Shown in pieces: positions 7,601 to 57,636 of a stretch of 64,000 nt of DNA (position 1 is its first letter; every line of letters starts with the position of its first letter). The DNA comes from Haliotis rufescens. Lineage: Eukaryota. Both the position numbers and the translations under genes were made by a program. The DNA is taken from NCBI RefSeq assembly GCF_023055435.1, contig NW_025964235.1:868001-932000 (forward strand). Reading direction: 5' to 3'. The notes under the pieces were generated by a model, which had not been told where the DNA came from, did no database searches, and saw only the letters and a program-made list of their open reading frames with translations.

Positions 7601-8564
7601 CATACCAGAGACCATATACCGGTATATGGTCTCTGGTCATACCTTTCGTTCCAATCGTCTCAAATTTCATTCCAGTCATCATAACTTTCATACCAGTTGC
7701 CAGTACTTTTGTTCTAATTGCCACAACTTTGGTAGAAGAAGACACTAAATGGGATGTTAAGGTCGATGACATTTTCATTTTTTGACGTAAAATGGTGAAA
7801 ATGTGGTCACAGTATATTATTATTAAAACACTTGTCTGAATGCTGATCATTATTATTTTTCAACCAAGCGAATATTTCTCTGCAATACAGTTTCAACTAT
7901 TATGGGTTGATTTGGAAAGTTAAAAATAGTTCTGATGCTGCTAACTTTTAGACATCAGAACATCATAAACATATGTGACAGCGACCAGCTGATGCTACAC
8001 AAACATGCCTTTAAATAGTCACATGTCGAAAGTTGGACTTGCAAAAGATACTTGGGGACAAATGCCCATTGTAATCTTTTCAATGTCATGTGTACTCCAT
8101 CCAGGTCCTGTTTATGCTGTTTGCTGTGATTGGAGCATACATTTCATCATCAACCAATCAGAATGTGCCAACAGGTGTCAGTGAAATCACTGGATTCATC
8201 GGAGGAATTCTAATCATATTTGGGGCAAGACTTGCTTCTGGATGTACAAGGTTAGCACATCTTCACTTATCTGTGAATATAAAGGTGAATACTGGTGAAT
8301 ATAAGGAGTGTTTTAGTGTTTGTTTCATACTGGACTACCTGTCATTACTCCATAGTAATGGATTTATCTTGATGACAAGAAGAAAGTATTCATTACCCGA
8401 TATGTTAGTGTCCCAATTAGAAGTCTGTTTGTTAATTGAATTATTATTTCTGTTTTAGTGATCACGTTATCTCTGGCGTAGGACTTTTATCTCTGCACTC
8501 CCTCATGTGTGTCCTGGCTGTAGTGGTTGGAGGTGTTGGCGCCGCCAGGCTGGTGCGCTCATAG
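1657..8564 (+). CDS. YeeE/YedE-family (TsuA-like) sulfur-compound transporter, 10 exons, about 381 aa
   Basis: Exons 1657-1828, 2585-2668, 3632-3789, 4360-4408, 4791-4893, 5900-6014, 6980-7079, 7389-7501, 8105-8250 and 8459-8564. All introns are GT-AG; total is 1146 nt in one frame ending TAG. The protein is hydrophobic and Gly-rich, with family-type motifs FGYAAEKGKAFEP, GGGMLGGGMAVSGA-GPAM, WSPYLCG, LGGSTSF and GGILIIFGARLASGCTSDH. Confidence 0.88.
1866..2452. repeat. (TAC)n/(CAC)n compound microsatellite in intron 1
   Basis: Direct reading. Confidence 0.92.
3897..4126. repeat. 22-bp tandem repeat amplified inside a family C retroposon
   Basis: GCTTGTCGTAAGAAGCGACTAC x about 10, flanked by the family C head and body. 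Confidence 0.9.
5272..5677. mobile_element. Penelope-like element remnant (inverted pseudo-LTRs)
   Basis: Near-perfect inverted arms of about 131 bp (5308-5438 / 5548-5678), one with a 3' extension. It is flanked by the direct repeat TTCCAACAAAAT (5260-5271, 5678-5689). Each arm holds a hammerhead-like motif. Confidence 0.7.
5592..5629 (+). ncRNA. Minimal hammerhead ribozyme variant (U3/A8), Penelope type
   Basis: GC-TTGACAA-C-GGTATA-aggatc-TATACC-GAAAC-GTC-GC: variant core, 6-bp stem II, GAAA, palindromic ACGT stem III and a GTC cleavage triplet. A mirror copy lies on the - strand at 5357-5394. Confidence 0.6.
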
Positions 8565-8706
8565 TACAGGATAACATGGGGAATGAAGGGAAGAACTGCG
8601 CATCGTGCAGACGAAGGTCTTGGTTGTCATGGTGATATCGGAACACATCTGTCTGAGCTGATGGTCCTGCAACTGCTGGTGTTAGGTCGATGATGTTGAG
8701 ACTGCT

Positions 8707-9110
8707 ATCCATGTAATGGTGCTCGTGTGTGCACACCGATGCTGTGATGGATGACAGTCCTGTAGGTTCTGATGCTGAGGTCATCAGTGCAGGTAATTCA
8801 AGGATGTTGACGATCGTTGAGACAGATATCCATGTAATGGTGCTCGTGTGTGCACACCGATGCTGTGATGGATGACAGTCCTGTAGGTTCTGATGCTGAG
8901 GTCATCAGTGCAGGTAATTCAAGGATGTTGACGATCGTTGAGACAGATATGCATGTAATGGTGCTCGTGTGTGCACACCGATGCTGTGATGGATGACAGT
9001 CCTGTAGGTTCTGATGCTGAGGTCATCAGTGCAGGTAATTCAAGGATGTTGACGATCGTTGAGACAGATATGCATGTAATGGTGCTTGTGTTTGCACACC
9101 GATGCTGTGC
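8707..9110. repeat. 121-bp tandem repeat x about 3.3
   Basis: Units start at 8707, 8828, 8949 and 9070. Confidence 0.9.
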
Positions 9111-9393
9111 AAGGACGGCAGGGGAAGTGGGACAAGTACCAAGGGATAAATAACCCAGGATTGTGTGTGCCGATCAATGTGTATGAGCAGAAATGAACAA
9201 GATATAAATGCTCAGGGATTGTGTGTCCATGGAGGGGAGGGGAGGGGAGGGGAGGGGAGGTGAAATGAATCAAAGACCATGCCCCCAAACAATCAAGTCG
9301 ATAGATGTCCACATAGAGAACCTTATTTCTATGCCTGAGAATTGTGTGTATCAATGGAAGTGTATGCTGGTGTAAGAGTTAATAAAAATTGCT

Positions 9394-10141
9394 GTTGGCT
9401 GTCAGAACCTTAGTAGTAACATTGAATGCAGTTGTTAGAACCTCAGTGGTAACATTGAACTTGGCTGTTAGAACCTTAGTGGCAACATTTAACTTGGCTG
9501 TTAGAACCTTAGTGGTAACATTGAACTTGGCTGTTAGAACCTCAGTGGCAACATTGAACTCAGCTGTTAGAACCTCAGTGGCAACATTGAACTTGGCTGT
9601 TAGAACCTTAGTGGTAACATTGAACTTGGCTGTTAGAACCTTAGCGGCAACATTGAACTTGGCTGTTAGAACATCAGTAGTAACATTGAACTTGGCTGTT
9701 AGAACCTTAGTGGCAACATTGAACTTGGCTGTTAGAACCTCAGTGGTAACATTGAACTTGGCTGTTAGAACCTTAGTTGTAACATTGAACTTGGCTGTTA
9801 GAACCTTAGTGGTAACATTGAACTTGGCTGTTAGAACCTTAGTGGCAACATTGAACTTGGCTGTTAGAACATCAGTAGTAACATTGAACTTGGCTGTTAG
9901 AACCTTAGTGGCAACATTGAACTTGGCTGTTAGAACCTCAGTGGTAACATTGAACTTGGCTGTTAGAACCTTAGTTGTAACATTGAAATTGGCTGTTAGA
10001 ACCTTAGTGGTAACATTGAACTTGGCTGTTAGAACCTTAGTGGTAACATTGAACTCAGCTGCTGCAACCTTAGTGGTAACATTCAACTTGGCTGTTAGAA
10101 CCTTAGTGATAACATTGAACTTGGCTGTTAGAGCCTCAGTA
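9394..10141. repeat. 33-bp minisatellite x about 22
   Basis: TTGGCTGTTAGAACCTTAGTGGTAACATTGAAC. Confidence 0.95.
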
Positions 10142-14866: not shown

Positions 14867-19205
<4,339 letters not shown>

Positions 19206-20699
19206 CTGATTAACTTTTGTGTCAAACCCTGAAACAAACCCTGAAATATTTTACAAAAATATACAAAGATAGTGTGAGTATCTAAATCACGTAAACATGG
19301 AAAATATCATCTTTGAAATTTGACATACTGATATCATATATAAAGTCACTCTGAGCACTGTTTAGACATTAAAAAGTAAAGAATGAAATCTGTCAAAACT
19401 TTTACAGCTTCCCCCATGTTGATGTTGCAAAATCTGTACAATGTGTTGGCTAAACATGCTAAAGCTTAAACATTTATTAGGGCCTATAGACTTATTAACT
19501 GCATTTTAATTTGCAACAAATTGGTCACCTTGGTCATTTGTTGGTAAGGAATGTTTCATTGTTTTTCACCATGGTGACAGTTGTTCTTGATGTTTACACG
19601 GCACAATTTTGTTATTGGGAATGTTATTGGCAACATTAAAACATGCTAAATAATGAATATGTTAAAGGTATCATGTGAGTAGAAATAACTATGGATAATG
19701 GCAGATCAATAGAAATATATATCAATCAAAGTATTGTACTTCAAACAGTGTATCATTGGTACTCTCATAATGCTAATAACAGATTGGCATATGATGATTG
19801 TGAATAATGACAATTATTGTACTTTCAACAATGTTCAATATTACTCATTTCAGAGTTGTGGAAATTGTCTCCATAATACTTGTTTGTGTTGCACTCACAC
19901 GCAGATTTCGTGTTTAGGTTAATGTCTTCTCGAAATATTTGTTTGCTCAAATATTTTAAAGTGAGAATATGAATACATGGCAGATAGATATACAGTAAAA
20001 TACATCCAACCTTAGCATGATTATTAGAATTATCTGTTCTGATAATTTCTGAACATGACAAGACTGAAGAGAATATAGGATTGGCAACTGACATGTACTT
20101 TGCCAGTCCCTGGTATCCTTTGCATCAAACATAATACAAAAAAGAGGGAAACATGCCCCCTTCAAAACTCAGAAACATAAGATCGATCTATTTCAATGTA
20201 AATATATAAAATGCATAATTCGCTGTGGTACATAAAGATAAGGACTGTCAAAGTACATCCTACCAGTGCGAACATGGTGACGGCCACACTCAGCATGTTC
20301 AGCCACTGTGGTGTTGTTGTTTTTCTATTACTAGGCTAATCACTTACACTAGCATAGTTCAGTCAGTGGGAAAGAAACTTATGCCTGAAATCCCCTTTTA
20401 ATTCCAAACGGTGCTTTCTAAATGTGTTTATCAACCTCAGCTGACACAAAGATATGACCTGATGATGTCAGCAAGATCACTAGCCACTGTTTATCCTGTT
20501 CATAATCTGACAGTGACTGACAGGTCAAGATCTTCAACTGGTGGCAGACTGACGGGATATTCACAGCTTTAAACCTTCTGTTTCGCAGTTAATACGACAT
20601 AACTTTGTACTTACGGTATGCATAATTAAGAAAAACAGAATCTCGATGTCCGATTGCATTACTTGCGTGAACAATCACTGTCGAAAGAAAGTGACAATG

Positions 20700-33324: not shown

Positions 33325-36300
33325 ATGGACGTGGGAAATGCTTGGAAAGTTTTGCTGCTTTTCTGCATCTGCAGCCTTGTTTGTGGAAAGACAGCAGACA
33401 AGCCGATAGAACTTACCGAGGACAACTGGCAGGACATATTGGAAGGAGAATGGATGGTTGAATTGTGAGTTGTCTCATGCGGAAGTTATCTGGTGGATCG
33501 CGTGACCCCTATTTTCGTTATAGATCACACGTCTCAAATCATTGACTTTAGTTGCTCACACGGTGGTTTGTTTATTTACAGTGAGTCTGTTTTTGATTTG
33601 TGATTTTGTATTATTTTTCATTGCATAATTTGAAAATGATGTAGATCTGTTTTTGATTAACGTATTATATAGCATCAATGACGTGTGTGGCTACACTTAG
33701 AAGAACGCTATGTCATAATTTTAAGTTCCTTGTGGAGTTCTTCAGTGTGCACACAGTGGATGCATCGTGGCAGTAGATGATTGAGCGAGGATGTTGTAGA
33801 ACAAACTAGCACCACAGTCCCTATCCCATTCATGTCTGCAGCTTCTCAATGGGCGTACTGAACAAATGGATAATTGGGAGACATGTATAATAAAGATCTA
33901 GATTCTTAGCTGTTGCTGACAAACTTAGAAAAATTAGGTTGAACTTCGTCATTTGGGACAGTACTGAAGACGTTTCGTGTGCAGTGAGAGATTCCTGTCC
34001 ATGAATGTTGAACTGCGGTGAGGGTGACGTGAATATGTGGTGTTCATGCTCTATATGTCATTTATGTCGACTTGCCACGTCTATTGGCCCACATCCACTG
34101 ACCCGTGAGTAAACCTTCCACCCCTGCTGTTATTATCTCAACATACACCTTGATTATGTTTCTTGGTTTGTCGCAAACCTTTCCAGATTTCACTGACTGA
34201 TATACAGTATATGTCCGCATATTAGCCGAATTTTGAGGATACTATTTACAACATCATAAACCCAATTCACTCACTCACTCATACTTGTATGGCATTTATT
34301 TATAGACCGATGGACAGAAATGAATTTAATGACATTAAAGAATTTCACTGATAGACCAATTGTTAACCTATGTGAAGGATGCCAACTGCAAGCATCGTCA
34401 CAAACAGTCAGCCAGTGTTGGACAGTGAGCTGCTATTTAAACACTTAAAGTGAGAGTGAATATTGCTTGTATTTGACCAGTGTCGAAATAAGTGCCTGCC
34501 TGCGGTTGGTGACGTTTTTGTCGGGCTGCATGAAATTTGCCTCCACCTGCCCAACTATCTGGCAGATAATTTTAAGACTACTTAGGCATTAAGTTATATC
34601 ATAAGTCCTTGTAGATTCTCATGTAGTTGTTTGCCTTATTTCAACTGAATCAAGACACGATTTGTCTCTTATCTTTCGTGATTTTTCTCATAGTGTCGTT
34701 GGTGATCCATTATTAACATGAATGAAAGGAAGTAACTGCGCCTTCATTGGTCAATCTAGTCTTAGTTATAGTGTATTAGGATTGATATTAAGACACATAA
34801 TAATCAGACATACTTTTTTTTATAGGGCTGGAAAACATAATACGCAAGGTTTCATTTAAATTTAATATTGTCTGAATGAGGGCAGGTAACTTTCAAGATA
34901 GGCAGGCAACATTTATGGGTCACCTGCCCGACTGCCTTGTTGGGTTATGAAATTATTTCAAACACTGGAGATGACCCAGCTTTATGACAACATCCCCAAA
35001 GTGCAAGCCCCTAATATCCCATGGTGTTATTCAGGAAAACTCAGTTTGTTTTGGCTAGGTTGTTAAATGCTCACTGTTGTATGTAAATCAGTACACACAT
35101 GTTTTTTATAGGACATATAAATCGTCTCATTGTTTGACATTTTGCTCAATCATTGTTCCGCAGGCATCATGTAAACAAACGGTTGAGATATGACAGTGGT
35201 ATGTCAGTAAACAAACGATTGAGATATGACAGTGGTATATTAGTAAACAAATGATTATGATAGGACAATGGTATGTCTGTAAACAAACGATTATGATAGG
35301 ACAATGGTATGTCAGTAAACAAACAATTAAGATAGGACAATGGTATGTCAGTAAACAAACGATTGAGATATGACAATGGTATGTCAGTAAACAAACAATT
35401 AAGATAGGATAATTGTATGTCAGTAAACAAACGATTTAGATATGACAATGGTTTTTCTGTAGTCAAACGATTAAGATAGGACAATCATATGTCAGTATAT
35501 GACGATGGTTAAAGATAGGAGATTGGTTTGTCTGTAAACAAACGATTAAGATAGGACAATGGTGTGTCAGTAAACAAACGATTAAGATAGGAGATTGGTA
35601 TGGCAGTATACAGACTGCGTGGTCTGCTTCAGCATGGCGCCGTGGTGCCCGGCATGCCGGTCCTTCAAGGAGACGTGGGACAGTTTTGCCAAATGGAGCA
35701 AGGATCTGGATGTAAATGTTGGCATAATCGACGTCACCGAGAACCCAGGTATGGAAGTAACATGTTCACATTAAAAACAGAGTTTATGTACCACTGTGTG
35801 ATCTCTGTATGCTGTGGTCAATGTTTCCTGCTGCTTGGGGTCGTTCATACTGTCGGCCACTGGTTTGTATGACAAAGGCGTATTCATCGTCAGGCCACAA
35901 TGATTATGTAAAGTCATCATTGATTGACTGCTAACATGCTGTGTTAAATTGTGGCATGGTATCACATGGCAACCGACATTACTCCAAGCTAGTACAACCA
36001 GACACACACATAATATGAGGTAGAAATTGGCACTAGTCCTATAGTCCTTGCCGAACTGTCCAATAGTTAGGTATCATAAGGACTAGTATACCCATGAAGT
36101 TCCAGGTAGAGAATAAGTCTTCAGCAACCCATGCTTGTCGTAGGAGGCGACTAACAGGATTGGGTGGTCAGGCTCGCTATTTGGTTGATGTATGACATCA
36201 TTATTGCAGTTGCGTAGATCGATGCTCATGATGTCATTCACTGGATTGCCTGGTCCAGATCGCCGTAATATAGCTGGAATATAGCTGAGTGCGGCATTAA

Positions 36301-39300
36301 ACAATAAACAACCAAAAATAGTAGATAAAAACTAGCACCGATATACATGCACACATGTGATGCACATCTCCATTTACATGATATAAGTGCACTCATCCTG
36401 AACGCGATGTTAAACCCTCGTCTGAATGACTGATGTACAATGAGGTGAAATCGGGTTTGATGTCGCCTTCAGAATCATTGCACTTGTATAACAATGTGTT
36501 TGTCTGTCTGTGTGTGTATGTATGTGTGTGTGTTGCTGCTTGTACTAGCCCGGACTAGTGCAGGTTTTATTGTACTGGCCCAGTGAGATACAATGCCACA
36601 GTTTGACATGGATACCTCACCCAGCTGTGGGCCTCTTTGCATATCAATGAAAACAGTTAGAATTTTTATTAGCATTAAGCGAACATTTTAACAATTTGAG
36701 AATTACTGGGGAAAAAGGAGATTTCATGTATCCTCTCGCCCTTATTGGTAATATATGCATATTATGTCCTTTGTCAGCAGAAGGTGCACCTCCAGAACTT
36801 CATTGCTGCTTTGTTGTTTATACGTGCCTAATCTCTTTTTGTGCAATTTGACATCAATTTCATTTTGTCTGCAGGTCTGAGTGGTCGTTTTTTTGTGACA
36901 GCACTACCAACCCTTTATCAGTAAGTGTGACCAGATGATCAATCTTCTCGGCATTCTGTCTGATATCAGTAGAAAGATAATATGGTCCAGAGCTCCGAAC
37001 TACGACTGGAAGTAGTTAGTATCTAATTTCCATCATCAACATGTAAAAACTTGAATGCCAAAACTATCAAGATTTTAAAAATTATTTTGCACTGGAATGA
37101 AATAAGAATATTATTGGCATAATGCTAAACTAAAGGGTGAGGTAATAGCCCAGTAGTGAGAGTGTTTGCCTGCCTGGGTGTCAGGTTCTATTCCCACCAT
37201 GGATACAGTGTGTGATGTGCACACATGACCAGGTTATTTCTTCATCCCTAGTGTCCGAGATGGAGTGTTCCGCCAGTATCACGGCTCCAGGAAAGAATCT
37301 GACCTCATCAGCTTCGTCGATGACTACAAGTGGAGGGACATTGATCCAGTGTCGGGCTGGCTTGCTCCCAACTCTATACAGTAAGCTACACTGGTCAACT
37401 TACAGCTAACAACCAGTTGATATATGACATTGAAGTCTCTCCACCTAGTGTTGTGTCATTCCTAATTTGCATGTGATTAATAATTACGAGCTACTGAATA
37501 TGCATACTGTTCCGCCCCCCCCCCCCCCCCCCCCCTAATTTTGAAAACCATATGTAGTATGTTGTAGGCAGTAAAATTATCTGAGAGAGGATTTTGGAAC
37601 CCTCCCTCTTAAAAATGCTGGATCTGCCCTTGTTTCACAACTTAATTGTTGTGACTATTACATTTTCACAAATATGTCTGTTCAGCTGATGTAACAGCCA
37701 GTGGCTCTTACATTTAGTTTACTTACAGTCTTTTTTTATCAACTAAGATGCATGTTGAATATAATAAGATGCTGAATACATTAGTCTGTGAATGATTTAT
37801 TTTCTATTTTGACACAAACAAAACATAAAGGAACAAGAATTCACAACAAAATGCAAACTTTAAAGTTTTAAGTTGTCATGTTTACATCGTGTCACTGTGT
37901 GACCTTGCCCTTGAAATCAAATGTAGCAGCATGATCGGAGTCACTGTGACAGTTCGTCTCCCTCACTACTGACATTGTTGAGGTGGAAGTGGATCTTTGA
38001 TAATTTATGTGTCCTGTGACGGACATTATTTCGGATGTATCCATACTGACCCCGCAGATTCCTCTCTCACCAGGGGTGGGTCAAGAAACAACTGGAGCTG
38101 TATCTGTGCTTGTTAGATGATGGGTGGCGTCTTTAGTTTTAGGCCATTAGTCCTTATGATGATAACAGATAGCGAAACCTTTAGAAATGGAAAATTTCTG
38201 CTTGTGCATATAATACCTTAACTGTTGGACAGTTTGTCAAGGACCAAAGGACTAGGGCCAATTTCTAATGCTGCTATGCTGGTCATAAGAGGCGACCAAA
38301 TTGATCAAGTGATCAGACTCTTTGACTTGTTGATTGTGTGTCTTCGTACCCCGATAACAGGGATCGTTGCTCACAATATCAATCACTGAATTGGCATATT
38401 GGGGCGTCATACAGCTGGACTATTACTGAGTGGGCATTCAACAACAAACACATCATTTCCAATCTTTACTTTGCAGGATGTCCACTGTCGGGTTATTCTT
38501 CAAGGCTGCCATGGTTATTCGTGTAAGTTGTCCACGTTGGTTGTCGAGGGGTCGGGTCACTCGGGTGTCCAGGCAAGATGCAGATACTAGATATTATCAG
38601 AGACTTGTGCACAGAAAGCAATGTCATACTCTGTGCCAAGGTTTTTCCTTTGGCCTTGCGATGATATGCTAGCCATGGATATCATAAGTGGATCCTGAGA
38701 GGGTGTCTAGGGGGTCCGGACACCCCACCCCACCCCACCTTGAAAACCAAATGTAGTATGCTGCTGGAGGCAGTAAAATTGACTGAGAGAGGCTTTTGAT
38801 ATTTTAGACCCCTCCCTGTTTTGATTCATTGGTATTTCTAACAGATCTTTCCCATGTAACTTTGCACATCTCATATGCAATCTTCGAAATTCACACAAGC
38901 CTGAGACTACTGAATGTTGTTGATGGCAGTATATCTTATTGAATAGTAGCATTTGATGGCTAGAATTCTAAAACACTTCTCAAAACTTCCAATTTTATCT
39001 GCAAATTGGAGCTAAATAAAACTGATAGAACTTGTAAACATAGTAAACATTTGTCTACAAGCTTCTAACACTGTGTGTAAGTGAAATCAGGTTTCCACTT
39101 TTCCTGGAATAGTCTTTAAAAGAAGACTTAATTTATGGATAACTTCTTTAATACTGTAAAGGCGATGGTTCGGTATAGATCCTTACTGTTTTGCTTGACA
39201 ACGCTTAAAGATCTATACCGAAACGTCTCATTTACAGTATTAAAGAAGTTGTTATCCATTAATTGAGTCTACTTTGTCATCCGTCAACTTCTAAGTAATG

Positions 39301-41696
39301 CCTATCAAACAATTTTGTCTTAAAAATCCTAAATTTCTAAGGCTGCCCCAATGATGTATCCGAGCCAAAATGTCACATAAGTGTGAAATAGGAAGTTGTC
39401 CTTGCTGTTTATGAAATGTGTGCTGTCTCCGCTCCAGTCCTTCTACACGACCATGACCTCGGAGTACGGCATCCCGGAGTGGGGGTGCTACCTCATCTTC
39501 GCTGTCCTCACCATTGTCTCAGGCCTCCTCCTCGGGCTGGTGAGTAGCGGGGGACATATTGGGCAACAAACAGGTTGGGAAAATCTGATTGGTTGCAAAT
39601 GATGTTTAATCTGATTCGAAACTTGTAACTTTTCTTCAGGATCTATACCAAAACAGGGTGTTGGGGTAACGTAGTTGTTAAAGCGTTCACTTCTCATCCT
39701 GAAGACCCGGGTTCAATTCTCCACTTGGGTAGTGTGAATCCCATTGCTGGTGTCCCCTGCCGTGATATTGCTGAAATATTGCTAAAAGTGGCATAAAACC
39801 ATACTCACTCACTCATTCTTTCACATTACAGTAGGAGAAAGAAGTTGTTATCCATAAGTTTTTGGTCTACTTTAACTCTTCTGGACTTATTCTTCTGGAG
39901 TACATTTCTGAATAAGAGTGACAAATGTGTCATTTAGCCTGGTGAACTATGTATTGTTTTTAGATTGCAGATAAATATGTGTTTTCAGAATTTTCCATGT
40001 TATTGTGCATTTGACAGGACATTTTGCATGTATATCTATGGCTAATATTTTTTATTTTATTTTCAAAAACATTTTGCGCCCATCAAGTATTCAGTTTGAG
40101 AAAACCTGAAAGTAGTTTATTTGTGGACGTCATTATTATAAGCTGAATAACTGAAACACAGCTGCGGGAGATCACATTGAAGTCGCTGATCATTTTGATT
40201 ATTCGTGTAAGAAACCTTCTAAATATGAGTGGGGCTGCAGGGTAACCCTAGTGTTTAAAGCATTTGCTCGTGATGCTGAAGGCGTGGGTTTGATTTGAGT
40301 CAGTTCTACTTTTCCGATGGATATGTAACATATCAGTTCAATCTGTGGAACTTCTTGAGACAGCTCGGTTTGTCACTACTTTGAAGTTTTTTAAATGCCA
40401 AATATATATGCCTCTTTAAATAGTGGTGGTATGTATCTCTAAAGCATTGCCCCGTGACTTGCTGCTACAGCTCATCGTGTGTTGCTGTGATGTGCTGTTT
40501 CCGCCCAAATACCAAAGTGTGAGAGTCATTCAGGAGCAGCCTCAAGGGATGGGAGATACTATGGACAGGGAGGACAAGGTAGGTTTGTCATGACACAGGT
40601 GTACTCCGGACAGGGAGGACAAGGTAGGTCGTCCTGACACAGGTGTACTCTGGACAGGGAGGACAAGGTAGGTCGTCATGACACAGGTGTACTCCGGACA
40701 AGGAGGATAAGGTAGGTCGTGATGACACAGGTGTACTCCGGACAGGGAGGACAAGGTAGGTCATCCTGACACAGGTGTACTCCGGACAGGGAGGACAAGG
40801 TAGGTCGTCCTGACACAGGTGTACTCTGGACAGGGAGGACAAGGTAGGTCGTCATGACACAGGTATACTCCGGACAGGGAGGACAAGGTAGGTCGTGATG
40901 ACACAGGTGTACTCCGGACAGGGAGGACAAGGTAGGTCATCCTGACACAGGTATACTCCGGACAGGGAGGACAAGGTAGGTCGTCATGACACAGGTGTAC
41001 TCCGGACAGGGAGGATAAGGTAGGTCGTGATGACACAGGTGTACTCCGGACAGGGAGGACAAGGTAGGTCATCCTGACACAGGTATACTCCGGACAGGGA
41101 GGACAAGGTAGGTCGTCATGACACAGGTGTACTCCGGACAGGGAGGACAAGGTAGGTCGTCATGACACAGGTATACTCCGGACAGGGAGGACAAGGTAGG
41201 TCATCCTGACACAGGTGTACTCCGGACAGGGAGGACAAGGTAGGTCGTCATGACACAGGTGTACTCCGGACAGGGAGGACAAGGTAGGTCGTCATGACAC
41301 AGGTGTACTCCGGCCAGGGAGGACAAGGTAGGTCGTCATGACACAGGTGTACTCCGGACAGGGAGGACAAGGCAGGTCGTCATGACACAGGTGTACTCCG
41401 GACAGGGAGGGCAAGGCAGGTCGTCATGACAAAGGTGTACTCCGGACAGGGAGGGCAAAGTAGGTCGTCATGACACAGGTGCACTCCAGACACAAGCCGA
41501 GGTAGGTCGTCATGACACAGGTGTGTGGACGCATTATTCAACAACATCTGAACGGAATGGCGAATGCTGTATCTGACACACAGTATTGTACTTGCAGGAT
41601 GATGATATCATTGATGACACAAAACAAACAGATAGTGATGATGATGATGAAACTTCTTCAACCACACGACGGAGACAAGTACAGAAGGCGGAATGA
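33325..41696 (+). CDS. TMX1: Thioredoxin-related transmembrane protein 1, 8 exons, about 261 aa
   Basis: Exons 33325-33464, 35633-35748, 36875-36920, 37252-37380, 38477-38522, 39438-39539, 40471-40578 and 41598-41696 (786 nt in frame). Has a signal peptide, GEWMVEFMAPWCPAC active site, GLSGRFFVTALPTLYH, a TM helix with juxtamembrane CCC, and an acidic tail with RRR. Confidence 0.93.
34478..34967. mobile_element. hAT-like MITE
   Basis: CAGTGTCGAAATAA / TTATTTCAAACACTG termini and subterminal CCTGCCC repeats; TSD degraded. Confidence 0.5.
35170..35608. repeat. 36-bp minisatellite x about 12
   Basis: GTAAACAAACGATTRAGATAKGACAATGGTATGTCA. Confidence 0.9.
36089..36312 (+). mobile_element. Family C retroposon
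   Basis: Near full-length copy. Confidence 0.8.
39120..39319. mobile_element. Second, shorter Penelope-like inverted remnant (TMX1 intron 5)
   Basis: Same family as 5272-5677, including the tail CATCCGTCAACTTCTAAGTAATGCCTATCAAACAATTTTGT and the motif TTGACAAC...TATACCGAAACGTC at 39195-39227. Confidence 0.7.
39655..39815 (+). mobile_element. SINE family A, diverged
   Basis: Sequence similarity to the 54087 copy; (ACTC)n tail. Confidence 0.8.
40563..41523. repeat. 44-bp minisatellite x about 21 spanning the TMX1 exon 7 / intron 7 junction
   Basis: GGACAGGGAGGACAAG|GTAGGTCGTCATGACACAGGTGTACTCC. Confidence 0.95.
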
Positions 41697-45329: not shown

Positions 45330-47645
45330 TGTGGTGAAGCAGGTGCAGAGGGAGTCCTGAGAGTGGAGATTGGAAGGGTACAATGGCCGCTTTGTGTGGT
45401 GAAGCAGGTGCAGAGGGAGTCCTGAGAGTGGGGATTGGAAGGGTACAATGGCTGCTGTTTGGTGAAGCAGGTGCAGAAGGAGTCCTGAGAGAGGGGATTG
45501 GAAGGGTACAATGGCTGCTGTGTGGTGAAGTGTGAGTACAATGGCCGCTGTGTGGTGAAGCAGGTGCAGAGGGAGTCCTGAGAGTGGGGATTGGAAGGGT
45601 ACAATGGCCATTGTGTGGTGAAGCAGGTGCAGAGAGAGTCCTGAGAGTGGGGATTGGAAGGGTACAATGGCTGCTGTGTGGTGAAGCAGGTGCAGAAGGA
45701 GTCCTGAGAGAGGGGATTGGAAGGGTACAATGGCTGCTGTGTGGTGAAGCAGGTGCAAAAGGAGTCCTGAGAGTGGGGATTGGAAGGGTACAATGGCTGC
45801 TGTGTGGTGAAGCAGGTGCAGAGAGAGTCCTGAGAGAGGGGATTGGAAGGGTACAATGGCTGCTGTGTGGTGAAGCAGGTGCAAAAGGAGTCCTGAGAGT
45901 GGGGATTGGAAGGGTACAATGGCTGCTGTGTGGTGAAGCAGGTGCAGAAGGAGTCCTGAGAGTGGGGATTGGAAGGGTACAATGGCTGCTGTGTGGTGAA
46001 GTGTGAGTACAATGGCCGCTGTGTGGTGAAGCAGGTGCAGAGGGAGTCCTGAGAGTGGGGATTGGAAGGGTACAATGGCCATTGTGTGGTGAAGCAGGTG
46101 CAGAGAGAGTCCTGAGAGTGGGGATTGGAAGGGTACAATGGCTGCTGTGTGGTGAAGCAGGTGCAGAAGGAGTCCTGAGAGAGGGGATTGGAAGGGTACA
46201 ATGGCTGCTGTGTGGTGAAGCAGGTGCAGAAGGAGTCCTGAGAGTGGGGATTGGAAGGGTACAATGGCTGCTGTGTGGTGAAGCAGGTGCAAAAGGAGTC
46301 CTGAGAGTGGGGATTGGAAGGGTACAATGGCTGCTGTGTGGTGAAGCAGGTGCAGAGAGAGTCCTGAGAGAGGGGATTGGAAGGGTACAATGGCTGCTGT
46401 GTGGTGAAGCAGGTGCAAAAGGAGTCCTGAGAGTGGGGATTGGAAGGGTACAATGGCTGCTGTGTGGTGAAGCAGGTGCAGAAGGAGTCCTGAGAGTGGG
46501 GATTGGAAGGGTACAATGGCTGCTGTGTGGTGAAGTGTGAGTACAATGGCCGCTGTGTGGTGAAGCAGGTGCAGAGAGAGTCCTGAGAGTGGGGATTGGA
46601 AGGGTACAATGGCTGCTGTGTGGTGAAGCAGGTGCAGAAGGAGCCCTGAGAGAGGGGATTGGAAGGGTACAATGGCTGCTGTGTGGTGAAGCAGGTGCAA
46701 AAGGAGTCCTGAGAGTAGGGATTGGAAGGGTCCAATGGCTGCTGTGTGGTGAAGCAGGTGCAGAAGGAGTCCTGAGAGTGGGGATTGGAAGGGTACAATG
46801 GCTGCTGTGTGGTGAAGCAGGTGCAAAAGGAGTCCTGAGAGTGGGGATTGGAAGGGTACAATGGTTGCTTTGTGGTGAAGCTGGTGGAGAGGGAGTCCTG
46901 AGAGTGGGGATTGGAAGGGTACAATGGCCGTTGTGTGGTGAAGCTGGTGGAGAGGGAGTCCTGAGAGTGGGGATTGGAAGGGTACAATGGCTGCTGTGTG
47001 GTGAAGCAGGTGCAGAGGGAGTCCTGCGAGTGGGGATTGGAAGGGTACAATGGCTGCTGTGTGATGAAGCAGGTGCAAAAGGAGTCCTGAGAGTGGGGAT
47101 TGGAAGGGTACAATGGTTGCTGTGTATGGTGAAGCAGGTGCAGAGGGGGTCCTGAGAGTGGGGATTTGAAGGGTTCAATGGCCGCTTTGTGTGGTGAAGC
47201 AGGCGTAGAGGGAGTCATGAGAGTGGTGATTGGATGGGTTACGACGGCTGTTGTGTGGTGAAGAGGCGCAGAGGGAGTCATGAGAGTGGAGATTGAATGG
47301 GTACAATGGCCGTTTTGTTGAAGTGTGAGTACAATGGCTGCTGTGTGGTGAAGCAGGTGCAGAGGGAGTCATGAGAGTGGAGATTGGATGGGTACAATAG
47401 CCGTTGTGTGGTGAAGTGTGAGTACAATGGCTGCTGTGTATTGTGAAGCAGGGATTGGGTGGGTACAATGGCCGCTGTGTGTTGTGAAGCAGGGATAGGG
47501 TGGGGATTGCGTGGGTACAATAGCCGCTGTGTATTGTGAAGCAGTGATATGGTGGGGATTGGCTGGGTACAATGGCCTGTGTGTATTGTGAAGCAGGGAA
47601 AAGGATGGGGATTGGCTGGGTACAATGGCCGCTGTGTATTGTGAA
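45330..47645. repeat. 63-bp minisatellite with higher-order structure
   Basis: TGTGGTGAAGCAGGTGCAGAGGGAGTCCTGAGAGTGGGGATTGGAAGGGTACAATGGCTGCTG x about 30, punctuated by 30-bp short units and decaying at the right end. Confidence 0.95.
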
Positions 47646-51529: not shown

Positions 51530-53646
51530 TGTTGCATTGAACCTCATACACACCGCAGTGGCCATACGCCTCAGTGGCGTACAGAAGTCACGACTCATCC
51601 AGCAGGACACAGATGGGTTTACCAACGCCATCAGGAGCAGTCCGATATTCTAAGAGAAATGTTCCTTTCTTATCAAACACACAGGCTCCTGCAAAGTCAT
51701 AGTCTGCAACAAACACGGTGCCATCCTCCGAGACACAAACATCATTGGGTTTCCAGGTTGCTGTGCTAAAACATTTTGTTTGAACTTTGTTCTTGCTGGC
51801 CGTGACCCGGACACATGATCCACCCCATTCACACAAGGCAATATGGCCGCTGGGGGTGAAACTAGAGCTGATACTGGAGAGACAGCATAATATCGTTCAG
51901 TCCCATCTGTAAAGTAATATTGGAGATTCTTTTTATTGGGAATGTTTCCAACTACGAACCCCTGTTCTTTGGAACCAGTCAGACAATAAGTGAAGATAAG
52001 ACTTTCACTTGGGACCTTGTGGTGCAAAAGGATCTTCTTCATGATCTGCAATGAATTGTCAAATATAAAGAGGTAGTTCTCATGGATAACACCAATACTT
52101 TCATTTGCGATTGCAACAGCAATCGGTTTAAATGCATCCATTTTAATCTTCCTTTAAAAATCCCCATCAGTGGTAGAGAATTTGACTTTTTCATTAGCCA
52201 TGTCGGCAAATACCCGCCCTACCTATGGACTGTAGGCTCCACCCCTGATGTCTGGTCTCTCTTTGTCAGATTAGCACCGGGCAATGAATAGTCTTGTCAG
52301 GTTTAATCTAACTGTGGGACGAACTTCAACGTTTTCACACTGGTCCCGTTGGTATGAAACCTTGAAATTTCAAGAAGTTCTGTCATAGTCTCAGGTTTTT
52401 CTGTGCTGACATCTTTATCTGACTGTAAAGCAGATTGTGTAATTTCAGCTGAGATACTGAGTTCTTTCCCATCATCATTCAGACCTGGCTCGCTTTTTTC
52501 CCAAGGACTCCAGTTCACATTCATCTCCAAGAGGATGCCCCTGGAGTTGCCTGAGTCTCTCAGTCATCATTGTCTCCAGCATCAGAACCTCGACGTCCCT
52601 ACCCTCCGCTAGGATGTGGTCACAGAAGTCGACACAGCTGCTTATCACACCTTTCTGAAGGCGTACATCTCCAAGCTTGCTCTCTTGTTCCTTTGTGGCA
52701 GCTTTTGTTTGATAATGTTGTCAGTATATCCTCCTTCATTTTGAGTATCTTAGAAATGTTGAGTTTGGCATTTTGTTCGGTTTCAATCTTTTTATTCTTT
52801 TCTTTGTTTTTAATGGTTTGGATCACTGATACTATCTTTCCTTCAGCTTCTGATAATGTTGTCATATTTCACCTAATCTTTTCAGTTATTGCGATGATGA
52901 TTATCCGTTTTCTTGTTACAGCTTCCGATATTGTTTGACATCTGTGGTCCCTGCGTTCAATGAGGACACAAGTCAAACAGACGGGTTGCTTGCAAGACTC
53001 GCAATAAAACTCCACTTCTTTGTTCTCATGCTTCTGGCATGTTATTTTCTGTAGTTCTCTCAACTTCCTATCATACGTTCCTTCTTTCAGATCACCAAGG
53101 GCTATTCTTTCGTGCTTCCATGTAAGGAATGAAGAATTGTGACCATCAGAGCAGATGGTACAAAGAAGATCTGCACAATCAAGGCACTTCACTTCTGCAG
53201 TTGAATCTCTCCCTCTGAGGCCACAAGCTGTACATTTCAAAGTTTTGGTTGACATGAGTTTCACTATTTCAGTGAGTCCATTGATGAAGAAATTTGTCTT
53301 GATGGAGGTGACATCACCCAGTACAGATTCGTGACAATCAGGGCAGACGACAGGTCTTCCATCAGTTTTGGCAGTGTGCGCATAGGTACAGATTCCCGAC
53401 AAGCAGGGCAGACGACAGGTCTTCCATCAGTTATGGCAGTGTGCCCATAGGTACAGATTCCCGACAATCAGGGCAGACGACAGGTCTACCATCAGTTTTG
53501 GCAGTGTGCGCATAGGAAAACATGCACAGGAAGCAGTAGGTGTGGAGACAAGGCAGGGTCCGAGGATCTGTGAACACCTCAAAGCAGATGTGGCAGGTGA
53601 GGAACTCATCTCGGATTGACTCTGTCCCAGATGTCCCAGATGCCAT
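51530..53646 (-). pseudogene. Disrupted TRIM (RING-Bbox-Bbox-coiled-coil-NHL) E3 ligase paralogue
   Basis: RING (FLTCHICFEVFTDPRTLPCLHTYCFLC), two B-boxes, coiled coil and NHL-like segments (WKPNDVCVSEDGTVFVADY) are split over at least 5 ORFs by frameshifts and stops. It is collinear with the gene at 62457. Confidence 0.85.
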
Positions 53647-53710
53647 TCTCTCAGACTGGAAATTACAAAAACAATTAATGTCTATTGCCGATACCTAACG
53701 AACATGTCAA

Positions 53711-54629: not shown

Positions 54630-56648
54630 CAGGTAGACCGCAGACGGGGGGGGGGGGGGGAACTAATACTTCCAAGTAGGTCGTCATGACACAGGTATAC
54701 TCCAGACAGTGGGGACTATTACTTCCAAGTAGGTCGTCATGACACAGGTATACTCCAGAGAGGGGGGACTAATACTTCCAAGTAGGTCGTCTTGACACAG
54801 GTATACCCCAGACAGGAAGAAGGACTATTACTTCCAAGTAGGTCGTCATGTCACAGGTAGACCGCAGACAGTGGGGACTATTACTTCCAAGTAGGTCGTC
54901 ATGACACAGGTATACCCCAGACAGGAAGGACTATTATTTCCAAGTAGGTCGTCATGACAGAGATATACTCCAGACAGGGAGGACTATTACTTCCAAGTAG
55001 GTCGTCATGACACAGATATACTCCAGACAGTGGGGACTATTACTTCCAAGTGGGTCATCATGACACAGATATACTCCAGACAGAGGGGACTATTACTTCC
55101 AAGTAGGTCGTCATGACACAGATATACTCCAGACAGAGGGGACTATTACTTCCAAGTAGGTCATCATGACACAGGTATACTCCAGACAGGGGGGACTATT
55201 ACTTCCAAGTAGGTCATCATGACACAGATATACTCCAGACAGAGGGGACTATTACTTCCAAGTAGGTCGTCATGACACAGATATACTCCAGACAGAGGGG
55301 ACTATTACTTCCAAGTAGGTCATCATGACACAGGTATACTCCAGACAGGGGGGACTATTACTTCCAAGTAGGTCATCATGACACAGGTATACTCCAGACG
55401 GGAGGGGCTATTACTTCCAAGTAGGTCGTCATGTCACAGGTAGACCGCAGACAGTGGGGACTATTACTTCCAAGTAGGTCGTCATGACACAGGTATACCC
55501 CAGACAGGAAGGACTATTATTTCCAAGTAGGTCGTCATGACACAGGTATACCCCAGACAGGAAGGACTATTATTTCCAAGTAGGTCATCATGACACAGAT
55601 ATACTCCAGACAGAGGGGACTATTACTTCCAAGTAGGTCATCATGACACAGATATACTCCAGACAGAGGGGACTATTACTTCCAAGTAGGTCATCATGAC
55701 ACAGGTATACTCCAGACAGGGAGGACTATTACTTCCAAGTAGGTCATCATGACACAGATATACTCCAGACAGAGGGGACTATTACTTCCAAGTAGGTCGT
55801 CATGACACAGATATACTCCAGACAGAGGGGACTATTACTTCCAAGTAGGTCATCATGACACAGGTATACTCCAGACAGGGGGGACTATTACTTCCAAGTA
55901 GGTCATCATGACACAGGTATACTCCAGACGGGAGGGGCTATTACTTCCAAGTAGGTCGTCATGACACAGGTATACTCCAGACAGAGGGGACTATTACTTC
56001 CAAGTAGGTCGTCATGACACAGGTAGACCGCAGACAGTGGGGACTAATACTTCCAAGTAGGTCGTCATGACACAGGTATACTCCAGACGGGAGGGGCTAT
56101 TACTTCCAAGTAGGTCGTCATGACACAGGTATACTCCAGACAGAGGGGACTATTACTTCCAAGTAGGTCGTCATGACACAGGTAGACCGCAGACAGTGGG
56201 GACTAATACTTCCAAGTAGGTCGTCATGACACAGGTATACTCCAGACAGTGGGGACTAATACTTCCAAGTAGGTCGCCATGACACAGGTATACACCAGAC
56301 AGTTGGGACTCATACTTCCAAGTAGGTCGTCATGACACAGGTATACTCCAGACTGGGGGGACTATTACTTCCAAGTAGGTCATCATGACACAGGTATACT
56401 CCAGACAGGGAGCACTAATACTTCCAAGTAGGTCGTCATGACACAGGTAGACCCCAGACAGGGGGGGACTATTACTTCCAAGTAGGTCGCCATGACCCAG
56501 ATATACTCCAGACAGTGGGGACTAATACTTCCAAGTAGGTCGTCATGACACAGATATACTCCAGACAGTGGGGACTAATACTTCCAAGTAGGTCGTCATG
56601 ACCCACGTAGTCTTCACGGAGGTCAGGGTAGATTGTCATGACACAGGC
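54630..56648. repeat. About 53-bp minisatellite x about 37
   Basis: GGGGACTATTACTTCCAAGTAGGTCRTCATGACACAGRTATACTCCAGACAGA. Confidence 0.95.
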
Positions 56649-56933: not shown

Positions 56934-57572
56934 GATGGCTACGTGTCTACCGACGTCGACATGAACGTTTTGCACCAAACTACGCAGAGATGGAAGACAG
57001 CGTGTCTACCAACGTCGACATGAACGTTTTGTACCGAACTGTGCCGAGATGGGAAACATTGTGTCTACCGACATCGACATGAATGTTTTACACCGAATTA
57101 CGCCGAGATGGGAGACAGCGTGTCTACCAACATCGACATGAACGTTTTGTACTGAACTGTGCCGAGATGGGAAACATTGTGTCTACCGACATCGACATGA
57201 ATGTTTTACACCGAATTACGCCGAGATGGGAGACAGCGTGTCTACCAACATCGACATGAACGTTTTGTACCGAACTGTGCCGAGATGGGAAACATTGTGT
57301 CTACCGACATCGACATGAATGTTTTACACCGAATTACGCCGAGATGGGAGACAGCGTGTCTACGGACGTTGACATGAACGTTTTGCACCGAACTGTGCCG
57401 AGATGGGAAACATCGTGTCTACCGACATCGACATGAATGTTTTACACCGAATTACGCCGAGATGGGAGACAGCGTGTCTACGGACGTTGACATGAACGTT
57501 TTGCACCGAACTGTGCCGAGATGGGAAACATCGTATCTACCGACGTCGAAATAAAAGTTTTGCACCGAACTG
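56934..57572. repeat. 59-bp tandem repeat (alternating A/B units) x about 11
   Basis: GTGTCTACC recurs at 56943, 57002, 57061, 57120 and onward. Confidence 0.92.
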
Positions 57573-57636
57573 CTTTGATCAGGTCCACAGATTCAGTGCC
57601 AGAAGTGTGATGGTGTGGGGTGCCATATCCTACACA

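Follow-up and report, generated by a model that had tools for sequence, protein, structure and literature searches.

The original account of amphioxus mirage minisatellites is reportedly that of Canestro et al. in 2002. These arrays lie in Adh3 and in the globin genes BflGb6 and BflGb9, where regular splicing is undisturbed and the units at the edges are diverged, being excluded from homogenisation (PMC3087553). Variation in length between alleles or individuals is a further trait of such arrays, and that of Adh3 is unstable in length in somatic tissue as well. In human F7, a 37-bp VNTR is carried in intron 7, and minigenes with 1-12 copies used only the most upstream working donor, a positional choice examined in mammalian cells rather than molluscan ones (PMC1557585). 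The same source lists IFI6, CBS, LMNB2 and PDGF alongside F7 as similar repeats: in F7, LMNB2 and PDGF the first site only is used, and splicing of IFI6 and CBS draws on two pseudo-sites as well as the true donor (PMC1557585). A 25-bp VNTR in intron 18 of human ABCA7 leads to retention of one unit at about 2%, independent of array size, and array size affects expression and skipping of the downstream exon (PMC5954066).

We analyzed a 64,000-nucleotide stretch of Haliotis rufescens DNA (NW_025964235.1, positions 868,001 to 932,000; the window) in which a 44-bp array, array A, overlies the exon 7/intron 7 boundary of an intact TMX1 gene. Array A is a real splice-donor minisatellite of the mirage or F7-intron-7 type, and it adds a mollusc example, with stacked perfect decoy donors tolerated, to a pattern with precedents in human and lancelet genes. 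The TMX1 array shares with F7 a unit 1 that straddles the end of the exon, a series of identical donors continuing into the intron, and transcripts in which the first of these donors is used; unlike F7, TMX1 has 22 copies (5-9 in F7) and an exon part of 22 nt (4 in F7), and its array fills 93% of the intron, sits in a mollusc host and has a related array elsewhere in the locus (PMC1557585). Compared with the amphioxus mirages, the TMX1 array is found in another phylum and another gene, and length polymorphism is here just hinted at (PMC3087553). With respect to the features by which mirages are recognized, the splice signal survives in many units, though not in all, and splicing at the authentic site persists in 2/2 RNA runs. 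A search conducted mostly without subscription journals found no published account of the TMX1 array in Haliotis; the Haliotis minisatellite literature includes an intronic array with a 27-bp unit, in a different gene (PMC6905558). On the evidence below, we consider it probable that the array is neutral intron filler, spliced at its first donor and derived from a duplication of the junction itself.

The TMX1 gene and its array of donors

The host gene was modeled on the plus strand as eight exons with coding sequence at 33325-41696, GT-AG introns and no internal stops (Table 1). The initial annotation had named it TMX1, and the spliced model bears this out, being identical to H. rufescens XP_046364337.1 at 261/261 residues and matching the proteins of H. 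cracherodii (256/261), H. rubra (228/265) and H. asinina (228/262). A thioredoxin domain was detected (PF00085, E 1.7e-16) with its CPAC site present. Like the TMX1 family, the abalone protein has a signal peptide, a thioredoxin domain with CPAC, a hydrophobic stretch followed by cysteines, and an acidic tail with an arginine motif (PMC7563315). This motif, RRR in the cytosolic tail, is encoded by exon 8, which is apparently terminal and contains the stop codon. Two arginines and two aspartates of the tail are invariant in all 13 aligned homologs, 11 of which are named mollusc proteins, and judging from these residues the tail is under constraint. In human TMX1, a di-arginine motif confers ER retention (PMC7563315); roles in ER retention and palmitoylation are assumed for abalone TMX1 by analogy with the human protein.

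Table 1. Positions of TMX1 and array features in the window
Feature	Positions	Strand	Basis or remark
TMX1 coding exon 1 (ATG, signal peptide)	33325..33464	+	gene model, match to XP_046364337.1
TMX1 exon 2 (CPAC active site)	35633..35748	+	gene model, match to XP_046364337.1
TMX1 exon 3	36875..36920	+	gene model, match to XP_046364337.1
TMX1 exon 4	37252..37380	+	gene model, match to XP_046364337.1
TMX1 exon 5	38477..38522	+	gene model, match to XP_046364337.1
TMX1 exon 6 (bulk of the hydrophobic segment, presumably transmembrane)	39438..39539	+	gene model; RNA contigs join it to exon 7
TMX1 exon 7 (last 22 nt are the start of array A)	40471..40578	+	gene model, RNA contigs
Array A (44-bp unit x 22, unit 1 with 45 bp; per unit, 22 nt resemble the exon and 22 nt the intron)	40557..41524	+	
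True 5' splice site of intron 7 (donor 1)	40576..40584	+	used in RNA contigs of X12 and X9
TMX1 intron 7	40579..41597	+	gene model
In-frame TGA met by read-through of donor 1	40591..40593	+	conditional on the additional base in unit 1
21 downstream donor-like sites (17 exact, 1 GAG, 1 AAA, 2 GC)	40621..41507	+	
Unique 3' end of intron 7, including acceptor	41525..41597	+	gene model
Exon 8, coding part (acidic tail, RRR, stop)	41598..41696	+	gene model, RNA contigs
Array B (53-bp unit, about 37 copies; unit homologous to that of array A)	54656..56609	+	

Tandem Repeats Finder (TRF) reported the array at 40563-41524, with a period of 44, 21.9 copies and 93% matches. Its existence had been annotated with about 21 copies at 40563..41523 and a unit of 16 exon and 28 intron nucleotides; the 44-bp period stands, but similarity to the exon reaches 22 nt (20/22 matching) rather than 16, so the array runs over 40557-41524 as 968 nt, or 22.0 units, each with 22 exon-like and 22 intron-like nucleotides, apart from a first unit of 45 nt. 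The description of a ladder of donors filling almost all of intron 7 was accurate (93% occupied), as was the placement of the end of exon 7 no earlier than 40563, since the model and the RefSeq protein put this exon at 40471-40578. The 22 donor-like sites comprise 18 AAG/GTAGGT (the true donor and 17 exact decoys), two AAG/GCAGGT, one AAA/GTAGGT and one GAG/GTAGGT, such that GT is kept in 20/22; they are spaced by 45 nt, then 44 nt nineteen times, then 42 nt. TTG follows at site 1 alone, as had been noticed before. The most diverged units are those at the edges, 1 and 19-22, likewise a feature of the amphioxus mirages (PMC3087553). A 20-nt pattern derived from the unit matched 59 times in the window against a mean of 0.01 in shuffled sequence, which excludes chance as its source.

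Sequencing runs gave an independent view of the array: four of the 24 listed runs were compared over 40330-40650, two of DNA (X6 and X20) and two, X12 and X9, whose RNA type is a guess although both are spliced. X6, from another study, yielded a contig that agrees with 40330-40614 at every position, down to the additional base in unit 1; its unit contigs have about 14-15 times the depth of the flank, compared with a mean of 6-8 occurrences of these words in the window. X20, which carries another species label and differs at five listed positions of intron 6, enters the array from exon 7; the extra base is missing from the contig anchored in its flank, the depths of 35, 147 and 40.7 adding up to the 222.7 recorded for omission of the base at 40585, and its unit contigs reach only about 4 times the flank depth. 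That the array might be a product of misassembly is scarcely credible given these contigs, which come from an independent study in the case of X6 and enter from the same flank in the case of X20, and given that the units bear patterned variants; coverage by independent DNA extends to the junction, the first unit and unit contigs. The array thus survived the artefact objection that had accompanied its annotation.

Two other repeats lie within introns of TMX1. In intron 1, a 36-bp x 12 array at 35171-35612 ends 20 nt upstream of the exon 2 acceptor, and the branch point of this intron is probably in the array or at its end. In intron 5, an inverted repeat at 39119-39275 has 45-nt arms and is MITE-like.

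Donor choice and the product of read-through

In RNA runs X12 and X9, which derive from two studies, contigs ran from exon 6 through exon 7 to exon 8 by way of donor 1 (2/2), with depths of 53 and 13.7 for the contig carrying exon 7. The main contigs of both crossed the donor 1 junction unbroken, with loose ends of 255 letters; as contigs, they lose rare variants and give no isoform levels. Among the listed pieces of X12 and X9 there was no loose end at 40623 and no read-through sequence of unit 1 that would mark a decoy junction; since contigs drop rare variants, this does not speak against decoy use. Each run also produced an array-only contig, at a depth of 3.36 in X12 and 7.24 in X9, or 6% and 53% of the mRNA contig when uncorrected for collapsed units. 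The X12 contig contains a GC-type unit as at the 3' end of the array, without exon 8 sequence. These array-only contigs fit the presence of some unspliced RNA or DNA carry-over. At the protein level, the four Haliotis RefSeq members of the TMX1 cluster all read DREDK followed by the full tail (4/4), and no truncated TMX1 isoform was found among the 120 listed of 970 matches or among these four cluster members.

Why donor 1 is selected was addressed by prediction. The computed U1 duplex energy was -10.3 kcal/mol for donor 1 and for all 17 exact decoys, and the TTG at donor 1 offers one isolated extra U1 pair at +8 that leaves the energy unchanged. Predicted accessibility of donor 1 against the other sites was 0.048 vs 0.006-0.103, 0.062 vs 0.006-0.053 and 0.017 vs 0.003-0.050 at three window sizes of the calculation; RNA structure as a cause of donor choice was set aside, as the difference was not stable over the three. 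Within intron 7, no AG is preceded by at least 10 pyrimidines in 14 nt, but the true acceptor likewise fails this test, which therefore says nothing about internal acceptors in the array. With equal U1 energy and no stable difference in accessibility, position likely decides: by these predictions and by analogy with F7, donor 1 would be chosen for its place rather than for sequence strength or RNA structure, as the site that defines the shortest exon and the first to be met in transcription. The value of the locus for studying donor choice, which the initial annotation had proposed, is underlined by decoys whose U1 energy equals that of the true donor; such an experiment has been done for human F7, and the abalone array could serve as a cheap natural test of positional choice outside mammals.

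Splicing at any of the 21 downstream sites would have the consequence that had been foreseen, a reading of REDK-VGLS-stop, giving a protein of 233 aa with the last 32 residues lost. Under the usual rule for junction-dependent NMD, a stop must lie more than 50-55 nt upstream of the last exon junction. The distance from stop to junction is 30 nt for donor 2 and at least 74 nt for donors 3-22, so by this rule the donor 2 product alone would escape NMD; the earlier alternative of a tail-less product or an NMD target is therefore divided between the sites, with donor 2 unfit for NMD and donors 3-22 fit for it. The predicted 44-nt cDNA ladder likewise needed adjustment: because unit 1 measures 45 nt, decoy use would yield +45, +89 and +133, with steps of 44 only after the first. 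The in-frame stop itself hangs on the extra base of unit 1, which is present in X6 and absent from X20, arguing that early termination is not a conserved design.

A reading that is largely compatible with positional choice and differs from it in degree only is that the array leaks without function: donor 2, perhaps also donor 3, would be used in a few percent of transcripts regardless of copy number, so that small amounts of a 233-aa TMX1 without its tail would come from donor 2, and transcripts from later donors would be substrates for NMD. Identical donor 9-mers with identical U1 energy are what such leakage would call for, exon 7 would measure only 153 nt with donor 2, and the donor 2 stop is close enough to the junction for its product to persist. 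There are precedents in CBS and IFI6 (PMC1557585) and in ABCA7, where, as in TMX1, each unit has a donor dinucleotide and use of the second donor leads to a premature stop (PMC5954066). By this analogy, low-level use of donor 2 in abalone TMX1 is plausible. Against it, the main contigs of both RNA runs are unbroken over the donor 1 junction, and F7, LMNB2 and PDGF use the first site only (PMC1557585); as a full account, leakage into a few percent of transcripts strikes us as possible but somewhat doubtful.

Array length and TMX1 output

The initial annotation had also raised the idea of a copy-number rheostat, in which longer arrays would bring more decoy splicing or slower removal of the last intron, and hence less full-length TMX1 or more of a form without the di-arginine ER signal. 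A hint of length variation comes from the ratio of unit to flank depth, about 14 in X6 and about 4 in X20, although depth is no copy number. Array length in ABCA7 alters expression and downstream exon skipping (PMC5954066), and the retention of human TMX1 in the ER by its di-arginine motif (PMC7563315) would give loss of the tail a consequence. These precedents are outweighed by others: donor choice in F7 was the same from 1 to 12 copies (PMC1557585), and in ABCA7 unit retention is independent of size, the length effect acting through skipping of the next exon (PMC5954066), whereas the next exon of TMX1 carries the stop codon and appears terminal. Moreover, the early stop is not common to X20, and each added unit lies farther from exon 7. 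Taken with the use of donor 1 in 2/2 RNA runs and the full tail in 4/4 proteins, this leads us to reject the rheostat as very unlikely.

We give equally little credence to its most specific form, in which array length would set the use of donor 2 and so the amount of a 233-aa TMX1 that escapes NMD and lacks the arginine ER signal. Such a protein would keep the redox domain, the membrane anchor and the juxtamembrane cysteines, and, if this were true, a polymorphic intron repeat would tune a reductase leaving the ER in abalone, unlike anything in the F7 minigenes. The array would gain in importance only if its length changed the output or location of TMX1. The reading of neutral filler assigns it no such effect; it may have persisted because its layout leaves the protein intact.

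Origin of the array and its relation to array B

The proposed history begins with a 44-bp stretch over the exon 7/intron 7 junction that would have been duplicated locally, likely followed by unequal exchange that expanded it to 22 units. For a 44-nt seed falling at random in the TMX1 gene, the chance of covering one of the seven donors is about 3%, and TRF reported 40 rows in the window; given this chance, we infer that selection is not needed to explain such an array in a repeat-rich genome. In the frame of the exon, the consensus array A unit reads T-P-D-R-E-D-K, identical to the exon in H. asinina and H. rubra, with N-P in H. cracherodii; H. rufescens exon 7 reads T-M where the units read T-P. 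The array is thus inferred to be older than the Pro-to-Met change in exon 7, its units keeping the older state of the exon.

Array B lies 13 kb downstream of array A, away from known exons, and is present in X20 too. The two units are homologous over their whole length, with a net 9-nt insertion in B; their local score is 67, where 2000 shuffles gave at most 25, and 38 of the 59 unit pattern matches fall at 54676-56647, in and just after array B. Internal divergence is 3.5% in array A and 5.6% in array B. Array B is likely a daughter of array A, seeded when a copy of the unit moved downstream: we read it this way because in 4/4 abalones the exon has the A form, and because depth suggests no large dispersed family. 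On the latter point, summed depth in X6 peaked at 71 times the flank against 59 units in the window, a hint against many loci of the repeat genome-wide. Should the seeding be true, a satellite family would have been born from a splice junction. Derivation of array B from a partial duplication of the gene was considered and dropped, there being no homology to exons or unique intron sequence near B; in a BLAST comparison of the gene with the 48-64 kb region, every match lay outside the arrays.

The opposite direction of descent would start from an older repeat family like array B, a member of which entered the exon 7 end of an ancestral Haliotis and was exonised, supplying the last codons of exon 7 and its donor. 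The homology over the whole unit is as expected of this, as are the greater divergence of array B, its distance from TMX1 exons and its presence in X20. It is countered by the exon end itself, which has the A form without the B insertion in all four abalones, and by the insertion, which resembles a second copy of part of array B's own unit. Further, arrays A and B share no flank (flank scores 16-25), and the X6 unit depth of 14-15 lies no more than about a factor of two above the multiplicity of 6-8 that the words have in the window alone. An acidic D/E-K-D-D-like sequence at the exon end in other gastropods argues weakly in the same direction, the end of exon 7 being too low in complexity for alignment outside Haliotis. 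We regard an insertion origin as unlikely and favor the junction as the source of both arrays.

Several other features of the window were recorded. Directly downstream of array B is a 59/118-bp array (56942-57573). On the minus strand at about 52550-53650 lies a TRIM-like gene with a B-box (PF00643) and a cysteine pattern that we take to be RING-like; the two parts of this gene are in different frames owing to a 65-bp triplication at 53321-53516. A 63-bp array with strong G skew at 45330-47310 leaves all three minus-strand frames open for 630-708 codons, probably as a by-product of composition. Also on the minus strand, a 260-codon open frame at 18468-19250 has no Pfam match and presumably resembles the large early exon of GPATCH2. 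Finally, at 8075-10140 a hydrophobic coding-like stretch is followed by 121-bp x 3.4 and 33-bp x 22.6 arrays.
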